In this document: positions 54,001-57,000 of the stretch, one piece after another
Layout of the letters: each line of letters begins with the position of its first letter
How positions within the stretch are numbered: the stretch's first letter is position 1
Assembly: GCF_051903065.1 (NCBI RefSeq)
Contig: NZ_CP178438.1
From: Escherichia coli
GTDB lineage: Bacteria; Pseudomonadota; Gammaproteobacteria; Enterobacterales; Enterobacteriaceae
Direction: 5' to 3' (one strand)
Length of the DNA stretch: 64,000 bases
Position numbers: made by a program

Positions 54001-57000
54001 GCTGACCAACATCAAACTCAGTTGATGCGTCGACCAAACGATCCTGAAGTGGTGTGCATGCGCTGTTGTCCGGCACATGTTTTTCTGCTGAATGTTCCTT
54101 ATTGTCTAATAACGCAGATTTTTTTATGCCAAGACTGACAAGAAGATCTGTACTCAGGCATGGGATGAGATCTGCATTATTATCATCTGCAATAAAAGTA
54201 ATATCCCGACTAGTCATAAATTCGTCGTTCAAATAAATGTCGACCCGATATGTACCAGGTGGTGCCTCGCGTCCCTTAGTAAAGGCGGATAAATCGACAG
54301 ATTCAGCAAGATCATTGCTTAAAAATCGTGGATTAAAATAATACTCTGCGTAAACGGGAAATACCGCAGTTGCTAAGCCAAGGGCAATCGTAAGCCGTGC
54401 AAAGCGAGGCAGTAGTAACACCTGATGCATACGATATGCCTTAAATGCGGCACGAAAGGCTGTCATTATTAATTCCGATTGAGTTTATTATTAATTAGGT
54501 CACTGGCTTACTGCATGGTTGCCTTAATACGCGGAGTTAATGCGCCGTAATCATTGATCGTCTGAAAACTGATATCCCCGGTGGCAGCATGCGGGATATC
54601 CACCGACACTTCACCTTTTGGCGGCACCATGGTGTTTGGGAGATTGCTATTTCCTGCTTTCATATTTGTTACGGTAATGAAGTAGGGCGTTGGATTAATA
54701 AGAGTGAGTTTGCTACCGCTGCGACGAAACCGAAGCATTGCAGGCGCTTCTTCAGGTGCCATTGCCAGGTTCGTGGGGCGATAAAACATTTTTATGCGGC
54801 TAATAATTGCCAGCTGTAATGTATTCTCATTCTTCTGGTCTTTTTCCATAGCAGGAATAGCTTTAACATTCACCCAGAACAGGCTTTCACGGTCGCCTGG
54901 TAACTGATGATTAGTGGCGTTGATTATCCGCAGCGTATTCTCTTTTTTACCTTGCATGGAAAAAAGCGGTGGGGTAATGACAAACTGGGTGTCTTTTTGG
55001 TCACCTGCATTTTCTATCCATGACTGAATGAGATAGACACTGGCAGGATCATTATTCGTGACAGGCAATAAAACCTGTTTCTGGTTTGCCGGATAAATTA
55101 CCCGAGTCGCACCCAGTGCGACAGCTGCGTTGGCAACGGTGCTATGGCAAGCAAAGAGCAATAAAAGTAACACTGTCGCCATAAAGGAAATAGAGTAGGG
55201 GGTACGCGTAGTTTGCATCTGATGCATTCTCCATGTGTTAAGAGGATAAGCGGGAAAACCGTTACATCAGACAATCGGTAAATGTTGCTAATACATTGGC
55301 GAGTCGCCGGGTTTCCAGACTTAATGCGTTTGTAATAAATGTTGGTTCTCTTTTAATAGGAAAACCTTGCTACAAAGTAAATATTTTAAATAACAGTAAG
55401 TTTAACTACTGTTGTTTATTGATAGTTTAGATATTATGTGATTTTTCATAGCGCTCCAAATACAAACTACTCCTCATTAATAATGAGATTCACATTGGTG
55501 AATTGCTCGGGTGTGCGTAGCCATGCCACACACACCCTGTTTCAATTTCAGATGACGTATAGCCACCTTAAGATTGAATTATAGATATTGAACTTTGAAG
55601 GTCGCATCTGCGTTTGCAGTACCAGCTACGGACTGCCCGAGTGCAATATAACGAGCCTGGAACGGCAGTATATTCGTGCCATCAATCAAGTCAGTTTTAG
55701 CGCTAAAAGTGGCACCATCAAGTGTTAATACCTCACCCGTACGGTCTAAAATTTGGATACCGACATTTTGGGCAGAGCCTGCCGCTGAACTCTGCAGCGC
55801 TAACGTATCGTCATTACTGGTGACAGTAGTACCCAGGAATGCAACAGCTGCATTACTGGAAACATTGGTATCACAATCATTCAGCTTGATATTGAAGCCA
55901 ACGGCGGAGCTGAGGTCACCCGCTTTAGCCAGGCGAGAAGAACGAACCTGACCCAGCTCAACCGTTTGGTTCATTGATTCGGAATCAATCGCACAAGCGG
56001 CATTTACCACTTCACCTTTAAAATGAATAACACCGCCATTAACAGTGGTCGTTACTGATTCATCACCCTCGGCTGCGCTTACCGCAGCAGACGACATCGC
56101 CAACACAGAAACGACAATCATACCAACATGTTTGAGTTTCATAATTCTCCAAAATTTATATTTAAGTAGCTGAATAAAGAGAGTTAACAATTAAGTCATT
56201 CTGTTATTGCTTATAAAACAAGAATCATTCTTGATTGGTTGTTGCCCTGAGAATATAGTTTCCAGGGTTATTACATTTCACGAAGAACGAGAATATCTTT
56301 AAATCACAAGGACACCTAATCACAACAAGTTTATTGCTGCACTTGTTGAAGAGAGTATTTGCAAAAACATTTTATGTCGCTAAATAACATGACGATTTCA
56401 TTATGCATGTTATTTATAAACCGTGACTAAACAGAATATTATTGCGAACAAGGGAAGTGTCAGGAAAGGTCAAGGGCTACTAACGGTTTATATGGCTATA
56501 AATCATTAGCTATAGTTAATGTTTGCCTGGTGTAACTAACACCGAATTGCTCTAAAAAGATAAGTGCAGGGTTTATTAAAGCTGACCGACAGACTTTCTT
56601 AACCTGGTAATATCTCTCTTAGGTGACTCTCCAAACATCCGCAAATATTCCCGGCTGAAATGGGATAAGCTTTCGTAACCGACAGCATAGGCTGCTGTGG
56701 TGACATCGTAATGTTCATTCAGCATCGTTCGCCTGACTTCATTGAGACGTAGCCATTTCTGATACCGGAGTGGACTCATTCCCGCAAGCTGCCTGAAGTG
56801 TTGATGGAAAGAGGGCGTGCTCATTTGCACGCGGTTTACCAGCTTGAGTCTTCAACGCTGGGAAGATGCGGCAAACGGCAAATCTGCATACCAGCCAGCC
56901 TATATCCGGCATGCACAGGCCAATTATGAAAGAGGAGAGGCTTAAGTTCTGGAATCCTGAACGAATAACGACTACCGGAAAATCACTTCGTATCACTCAG

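Follow-up and report, generated by a model that had tools for sequence, protein, structure and literature searches.

The interval between hipA and the F9-type fimbrial (f9) operon in the Escherichia coli sequence analyzed here appears to be what is left of an eroded island that carried a YqhC-like regulator gene; the AraC-type piece found in it would be a non-functional pseudogene with no role for f9. We put the probability of this reading at about 90%. The window, i.e. the whole stretch of 64 000 nt taken from contig NZ_CP178438.1 of assembly GCF_051903065.1, has the gene order (minus strand) hipB, hipA (57116-58438), the remnant interval and a complete F9-type chaperone-usher operon. This operon includes genes for the major subunit (55579-56142), chaperone and usher, as well as ydeS/R/Q, all of them on the minus strand. 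Thus, the remnant has hipA as its upstream neighbor and the major subunit gene as its downstream neighbor, in the position described in an earlier note on this DNA.

The counterpart of the remnant in K-12 MG1655, situated between ydeT and hipA, is annotated in RefSeq as pseudogene yneL (b1506). By alignment to K-12 and by the b1506 annotation, the HTH fragment has the ydeQRST/F9 operon on one side and hipA on the other; the remnant in the window is an allele of yneL. The annotation of yneL as a pseudogene is already known, and variability of the f9 5' region has been published; what can now be stated is the origin of yneL, an islet of YqhC-like regulator, hydrolase and DUF2255 genes that was eroded independently among E. 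coli lineages. At least a part of the interval 56191-57115 is present in 5381 of 5426 complete E. coli genomes, and strain ECNB21-M121 carries it with 100% identity. In a genome with 100% identity, PGAP annotated bases 56576-56845 as a pseudo-CDS ('helix-turn-helix domain-containing protein; incomplete; missing N-terminus'). No Rfam family matched region 55900-57400 at E-value ≤1.

The truncated regulator gene and the pieces next to it

The remnant (56576-56845, minus strand) was identified by tblastn, Pfam and PGAP as the 3' fragment of a gene for a regulator of the AraC_N + HTH_18 (YqhC-like) type, codons 216-304 with the stop codon. An 84-codon ORF with a GTG start (56576-56830, minus strand), named 'AraC family transcriptional regulator' in older annotations, lies within it. 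We observed Pfam matches of this ORF to HTH_18 with E-value 4.2e-21 (profile positions 6-76 of 80) and to HTH_AraC with E-value 9.5e-8; therefore, the HTH similarity is real and far above chance. A profile built from 72 full-length homologues was searched, with filters off, against all six frames of 56400-57400. It matched the HTH frame alone (positions 218-303 of 307, E-value 8e-47), and no frameshifted continuation was detectable in this region. When the intact regulator of E. coli 05-3629 was used as tblastn query, residues 216-303 were aligned with 88.6% identity (E-value 4e-55). The nearest proteins in a database of 5.8 billion sequences were all short fragments (≤160 aa) from E. coli and its relatives; full-length relatives of ∼300-326 aa were found in an exhaustive search of cluster representatives.

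The remnant keeps the last 89 codons of the regulator gene and misses 71% of its codons. The missing part includes the entire AraC_N domain and the beginning of the DNA-binding domain (∼20, or roughly 20-25, residues); aligned to PDB 3mn2, the intact relative has this domain at residues ∼196-294, and residues 196-215 are absent in the remnant. The C-terminal domain of ∼100 residues with two HTH motifs, characteristic for the AraC/XylS family, is recognizable, though incomplete. The N-terminal domain of the YqhC-like subfamily, AraC_N (PF06719), was absent from the six frames of 56400-57400. Given that all close intact relatives possess this domain, the remnant is a descendant of the subfamily and, structurally, no longer its member. 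The earlier claim of a decayed AraC-family gene, of which the C-terminal HTH part alone survives, was borne out: translated search in all frames produced the C-terminal AraC fragment in a single frame and no full-length ORF.

The same gene had been described as frame-disrupted, and this did not hold. The DNA match to intact genes is ungapped (270-279 bp, 85-89% identity in blastn) and has a sharp end at 56844/56845. The AraC fragment is abutted there by 60 bp from the interior of an alpha/beta-hydrolase gene (56845-56904, plus strand; codons 226-245 of 365), with 93% identity in blastn to positions 5908-5967 of the related locus L008 and with 18 of 20 residues identical in tblastn (E-value 8.5e-10). 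As the AraC homology ends at hydrolase DNA, the gene was truncated by a deletion and not by disruption of the frame. At the junction the sequence passes from hydrolase ...GAAGACTCA to AGCTGGTAAACC... of the regulator; 2754 bp are removed relative to L008. We considered a microhomology at the junction, with GCGTTGAAGA and GCGTCGAGGA being alike, but the retained CTCA puts the junction outside of these sequences, with no more than 1 nt in common.

The 5' end of a DUF2255 gene (codons 1-15, MKEERLKFWNPERIT) was found by blastn and tblastn at 56926-56970 (plus strand), with 82% identity over 45 bp to loci L009 and L006 and with 10 of 15 residues identical (E-value 3.9e-4), respectively. The intact DUF2255 partner (Pfam DUF2255, E-value 9.5e-40) is located 3' of the hydrolase gene in Enterobacter vonholyi and Klebsiella. 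Next comes a flank (57004-57084) that Enterobacter and Citrobacter share at the distal end of their islands. All these pieces are collinear and correctly oriented with respect to the intact islands (L008, L009 and L006), where the order, in the orientation of the window, is regulator (minus), Fe-ADH (plus, in some versions), hydrolase (plus), DUF2255 (plus) and flank. The divergent pairing is still visible in the window, with the hydrolase and DUF2255 fragments adjoining the remnant on the opposite strand.

The second overlapping frame reported upstream does exist as an ORF of 85 codons (56739-56996, minus strand), but it runs out of frame in the AraC fragment and antisense across the hydrolase and DUF2255 fragments, i.e. 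through DNA of other genes. It showed neither a significant Pfam match nor a match to the full-length profile, and its peptide strings (IIGWLVCRFAVCRIFPAL) recur antisense to intact hydrolase genes in loci L008-L013. This ORF is spurious and arose by chance; the 'overlapping frame' results from reading relic DNA in antisense. Similarly, in the span 56576-56996 that had been assigned to the AraC gene, the remnant accounts for 56576-56845 and the rest is unrelated relic DNA. By eye, the upstream strings 'IGWLVCRFA' and 'SVEDS' resembled 'IDWLKTNIA' and 'RVEEL' of intact relatives, as if a frameshifted N-terminus were present. This candidate was ruled out: sensitive blastn and the full-length profile gave nothing, and the strings turned out to come from translating the hydrolase gene in antisense.

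The island in other genera and its alleles in E. coli

To place the remnant among its relatives we used the 80 related loci returned by a scan of GTDB species representatives. The regulator gene is full length in 79 of these 80 closest loci from other species. Among the six closest ones (85-89% identity) five have an intact gene for a regulator of 309-318 aa (E. vonholyi, Citrobacter youngae, Enterobacter sp. MGH 24, Klebsiella michiganensis and Enterobacter mori), while the copy in Klebsiella pneumoniae ATCC 13883 was truncated independently. Apparent frameshifts in the Klebsiella loci L004-L007 were given no weight, these being noisy assemblies with fragmented genes. Intact relatives (304-318 aa) carry AraC_N (PF06719, E-values 1e-44 to 4e-46) and HTH_18; their neighbors, namely Fe-ADH (in some versions), alpha/beta hydrolase and DUF2255, are arranged divergently from the regulator. 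We detected a hydrolase homologue within 8 kb of the regulator in 43 of the 80 closest loci and homologues of the F9 usher, chaperone and pilin, or of HipA and HipB, in none (E-value ≤1e-10); there was no synteny with hipBA or F9 among the loci examined in other genera.

The intact island occurs in Enterobacter, Citrobacter and Klebsiella and also in 86-93 E. coli genomes, where the regulator of 304 aa (WP_000622442.1) is encoded at argW/intS, beside intS and tRNA-Arg. At the hipA-f9 locus an intact copy was seen in none of the 5426 complete E. coli genomes; the maximum present there is ∼9% of the island. The comparison with intact genes proposed in the earlier note has, therefore, demonstrated decay by truncation, with the reservation that the intact copies of E. 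coli sit at another locus.

Several alleles of the locus were observed. The window-type allele, defined by the 124-bp segment 56786-56909, is present in 410 genomes, O157:H7 included. In the K-12-type allele (3066 genomes) 111 bp stand in place of this segment, with homology to the 3' end of the hydrolase gene (last codons, stop and hairpin terminator); AraC codons 216-235 are missing and a 1-bp deletion shifts the frame in the HTH. The B2-type allele (ST131, Nissle; 952 genomes) has no AraC fragment and keeps hydrolase codons ∼245-277; in addition, this class carries either an SDR gene together with a truncated LysR gene and a small esterase ORF, or a 407-bp deletion derivative thereof. The break points of the window-type and Nissle-type alleles in the hydrolase gene lie within 3 nt. 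By a further deletion, BL21-like strains have the HTH fragment fused with the pilin gene, which agrees with the 'YneL-FimA' proteins discussed in PMC9308461; that paper treats yneL as a pseudogene whose configuration varies, the FimA fusions of BL21 being one example.

As the deletions overlap and the retained pieces are mutually exclusive, no allele class derives from another; all must go back to a longer ancestor with the hydrolase gene at least from codon 226 to the stop. The fact that E. coli lineages retain different, mutually exclusive pieces also indicates independent erosion. The ancestral E. coli island itself would be a combination of the surviving pieces, with no intermediate among the genomes seen.

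These data suggest the following course of events. A small island, distributed horizontally, would have separated the hipA stop (57116) from the f9 promoter region in the ancestor, with a YqhC-like regulator gene (AraC_N sensor and HTH_18) divergent from genes for Fe-ADH (in some versions), alpha/beta hydrolase and DUF2255. At least three internal deletions in the E. coli lineage of the window would have left four pieces in collinear order: codons 216-304 of AraC, 226-245 of the hydrolase and 1-15 of DUF2255, and the distal flank. The AraC piece, with no sensor/dimerization domain, the first helix region of the DNA-binding domain gone, no recognizable promoter and no detectable constraint, would have become non-functional; the f9 operon would be served by its own H-NS-controlled promoter downstream, the AraC piece taking no part in f9 control. 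The homologies, the junction, the distribution of alleles and the neighborhood counts were shown directly; both this loss of function and the order of deletions are what we infer.

The distal flank contains a 27-bp core (ATTTAACATAATATACATTATGCGCAC, 57006-57032) identical in E. coli, Enterobacter and Citrobacter. In Klebsiella the core is identical in two of the three noisy assemblies, with a one-base difference in the third and in the K. pneumoniae type strain. The sequences on both sides of the core diverge between genera. The core is single copy in 5141 of 5426 E. coli genomes. Three interpretations were rejected: a part of a conserved small ORF or toxin (frames and stops vary between genera), a repeated or mobile element (single copy in E. 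coli, one per locus elsewhere) and, judged by eye, a mar/sox box (poor fit, the matching part not conserved). It could be thought that the hipA-f9 interval is a recombination-prone island boundary with a functional cis element (a recombination/attachment site or an operator, for instance). Such an element would explain the conservation of the core along with the hydrolase breaks within 3 nt in two independent alleles and, if real, would govern gain and erosion of cassettes upstream of f9. We consider its existence unlikely.

Fate of the HTH fragment and control of the fimbrial operon

One could ask if the HTH fragment of 84-89 residues serves as a free-standing mini-regulator (similar to the stand-alone domain of MarA/SoxS), having kept its function or gained a new one. 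The ORF is uninterrupted in ∼410 genomes, the window-type allele among them, many databases call the protein and microarray signal was reported for yneL under many conditions (PMC9308461). Against this, the ∼20-25 residues lost from the start of the DNA-binding domain amount to helix 1 and a part of the first HTH. The promoter scan of the minus strand found no sigma-70-like site in the stretch from hipA to the 84-codon ORF. In addition, the majority allele is frameshifted and B2 strains have no fragment at all.

Selective constraint was assessed as well. The dN/dS values (Nei-Gojobori) were 0.03-0.16 for intact genes, 0.11-0.20 for the window versus intact genes and 0.21-1.17, i.e. near neutral, for E. 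coli remnants, with ≤13 substitutions behind each comparison. Seven intact homologues from four genera served to define invariant residues; at these, we counted 3-4 private replacements per remnant allele, against 0-1 in a control where each intact sequence was left out in turn. Between the window and isolate 648 there were eight non-synonymous and five synonymous differences, a ratio that fits neutrality (P = 0.95), is unlikely at omega 0.07 (P = 0.001) and is borderline (P = 0.049) at omega 0.16, the loosest rate of the intact genes. Small as they are, these numbers point towards relaxed constraint on the remnant.

The microarray signal would be explained by read-through from hipBA, a candidate source; the consensus scan predicts a terminator-like hairpin with a T-rich tail at 56988-57006 (minus strand), ∼110 nt past the hipA stop codon. 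By its sequence the fragment does not look as a functional gene: most codons are lost, a promoter-like site is absent, constraint is relaxed and in most E. coli the fragment is frameshifted or absent. We regard a mini-regulator as very unlikely and would caution that the 84-aa ORF should not be handled as a functionally uncharacterized transcription factor.

It was also suggested in the earlier note that the remnant had been the local AraC-type regulator of F9 fimbriae, decayed by frameshifts, with the operon left to other factors. The remnant is located directly upstream of the f9 operon in the same orientation, and the K-12 allele does have a 1-bp frameshift. AraC-type activators are common among fimbrial operons. 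Still, one frame alone fits the full-length profile, the DNA upstream of it comes from hydrolase and DUF2255 genes, and the intact relatives are of the AraC_N/YqhC type. A dedicated fimbrial activator would be expected to show conserved linkage to fimbrial genes; with homologues of usher, chaperone and pilin at 0 of 80 loci, and with the pieces adjoining the remnant being those of its divergent partners, the proposed role was not borne out.

The f9 operon has a predicted promoter of its own (56400-56429, minus strand; −35 TAGTCA, 18-bp spacer, −10 CATAAT), ∼150 bp downstream of the stop codon of the remnant. We identified it as the f9 promoter because the site found in the promoter scan matches the one mapped by 5'-RACE in CFT073 (TAGTCG/18/CATAAT), where transcription starts 251 nt upstream of the pilin ATG (PMC3966885); in the window the inferred start is near 56393, at the same distance (251 nt) from the ATG of the major subunit (56142). 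In the same study direct repression of f9 by H-NS was shown, three different hypothetical regulators were described in the variable f9 5' region, and the authors stated that there was no evidence of f9 control by them (PMC3966885). Also, the AraC fragment is absent at the locus in B2 strains, and yet the B2 strain CFT073 expresses F9 at 20°C (PMC3966885). The remnant has probably never regulated the neighboring F9 fimbriae, and it should not be taken for a lost fimbrial regulator; an origin as such a regulator is largely refuted and, in our estimate, very improbable.

Finally, hipA stands in place of the missing ∼650 bp of coding sequence, which might point to a full-length AraC gene that lost its 5' part when the hipBA module inserted into it. 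This is hardly credible and is contradicted by mapping of the junction, which stands 270 bp from hipA and joins hydrolase DNA instead, the DUF2255 and island-flank fragments intervening before hipA.

The island eroded by deletions thus offers a tidy and datable case of stepwise decay of a gene island, though of little weight for biology at large.

Comparison with known systems

Fimbrial activators of the Rns/CfaD/AggR class belong to the AraC/XylS superfamily and are located next to a chaperone-usher operon, as is the remnant. Proteins of the Rns class are not known to have an AraC_N domain, whereas the intact relatives of the remnant carry AraC_N (PF06719) and in 0 of 80 loci reside beside fimbrial genes.

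A parallel in architecture is given by YqhC, with AraC_N and HTH_18 domains and a divergent gene for an Fe-dependent alcohol dehydrogenase/aldehyde reductase, as in the intact relatives of the remnant. We observed 31% identity of an intact relative to YqhC (E-value 6e-39) and 34% identity of the divergent Fe-ADH neighbor to YqhD (E-value 6e-66). YqhC is a distant paralogue of these relatives rather than an orthologue, and their set of partners adds the alpha/beta hydrolase and DUF2255. In E. coli, YqhC is an aldehyde-responsive activator of yqhD-dkgA (PMC8262776). By analogy with yqhC-yqhD, the original targets of the regulator would have been its divergent partner genes.

The island of E. coli 05-3629 (WP_000622442.1) and its orthologues are similar to the remnant at the sequence level, with 88-89% amino acid identity over the retained 89 residues and with hydrolase and DUF2255 sequences corresponding to the pieces in the window. 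Unlike the remnant, these regulators are of full length with AraC_N, and the islands occupy another chromosomal site without adjacent fimbrial or hipBA genes.

K-12 yneL shares with the window both the locus and the AraC-type HTH fragment. The window allele, in which codons 216-235 are retained, exceeds it in length and is free of the 1-bp frameshift. Its AraC piece joins an internal fragment of the hydrolase gene, while in K-12 yneL the fragment joins the stop/terminator region of that gene. In K-12, unlike in the window, the fimbrial pilin and chaperone genes and the 5' part of the usher gene have been deleted too.

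A conserved core at the island's distal end

A conserved element of the island, the module that comprises a YqhC-like AraC regulator, an alpha/beta hydrolase, DUF2255, a distal flank and, in some versions, Fe-ADH, is a core of 27 bp, ATTTAACATAATATACATTATGCGCAC (57006-57032 in the window), which contains a 6-bp inverted repeat (CATAAT..ATTATG). It was found unchanged in E. coli, Enterobacter vonholyi, Enterobacter sp. MGH 24 and Citrobacter youngae, as well as in two of three noisy Klebsiella assemblies; the third of these assemblies and K. pneumoniae ATCC 13883 each carry a version with a one-base difference. 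On either side of the core, identity falls to ∼75% or the sequences are unrelated. In every case the island carries the core at its distal end, and E. coli has a single copy of it.

Intact and separately eroded copies of the module

An intact regulator/Fe-ADH/hydrolase copy is present in 86-93 complete E. coli genomes (in E. coli 05-3629, locus L008, 5546-8990); it has ∼90% identity to the relic, the decayed version of the island between hipA and the F9-type fimbrial operon (f9). This copy is situated in the argW/intS region amid prophage remnants, adjoining intS and tRNA-Arg, a setting which suggests that the module was recently acquired anew at a second site. In Klebsiella, the island is mostly retained in assemblies L004-L007, and in the type strain K. 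pneumoniae ATCC 13883 the regulator was truncated independently (L014, 7553-8270), with ∼85 codons remaining and the 27-bp core located ∼430 bp upstream.

Breakpoints within the hydrolase gene

The hydrolase fragment of the window ends at 56904 with ...CCTATA, and the fragment in the Nissle/B2 allele starts with ATAAACTG (L094, 4725); on the intact hydrolase gene, CCTATAATAAACTG, that end and that start are ≤3 nt apart. The coincidence of breakpoints in these two alleles hints at a former insertion, or at a recombination hotspot, at this site. The majority E. coli allele (3066 genomes), represented by K-12 (L003, 3465-3575), has 111 bp in place of the 124 bp of the window (56786-56909); these 111 bp include, besides the stop codon of the hydrolase gene, a hairpin (GCAGTGTCT...AGACACTGC), which is probably the terminator of that gene.

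Flanking genes and the f9 promoter

The hipBA flank varies between E. coli strains too. In strain 315 (L092, 2324-3823) hipBA is replaced by carboxymuconolactone-decarboxylase-family and quinol-monooxygenase genes; hipA is truncated in E. coli E15 (L093) and reduced to its 3′-end in isolate 648 (L002), where the pilin gene carries IS2. The hipA frame of the window (57116-58495, minus strand) is open for 459 codons, counted from an upstream ATG overlapping hipB; the annotated HipA has 440 aa and starts at 58438. Upstream of hipB there is a large autotransporter ORF (58915-62910, minus strand). The annotation of an identical genome names it ‘ECSE_1600 family autotransporter’ and treats it as a pseudogene with missing N-terminus; the same gene is frameshifted also in K-12 and isolate 648.

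On the fimbrial side, the window has kept the f9 promoter that was mapped by experiment in CFT073 (56400-56429 in the window, minus strand), with a single change in the -35 hexamer, TAGTCA versus TAGTCG in CFT073.
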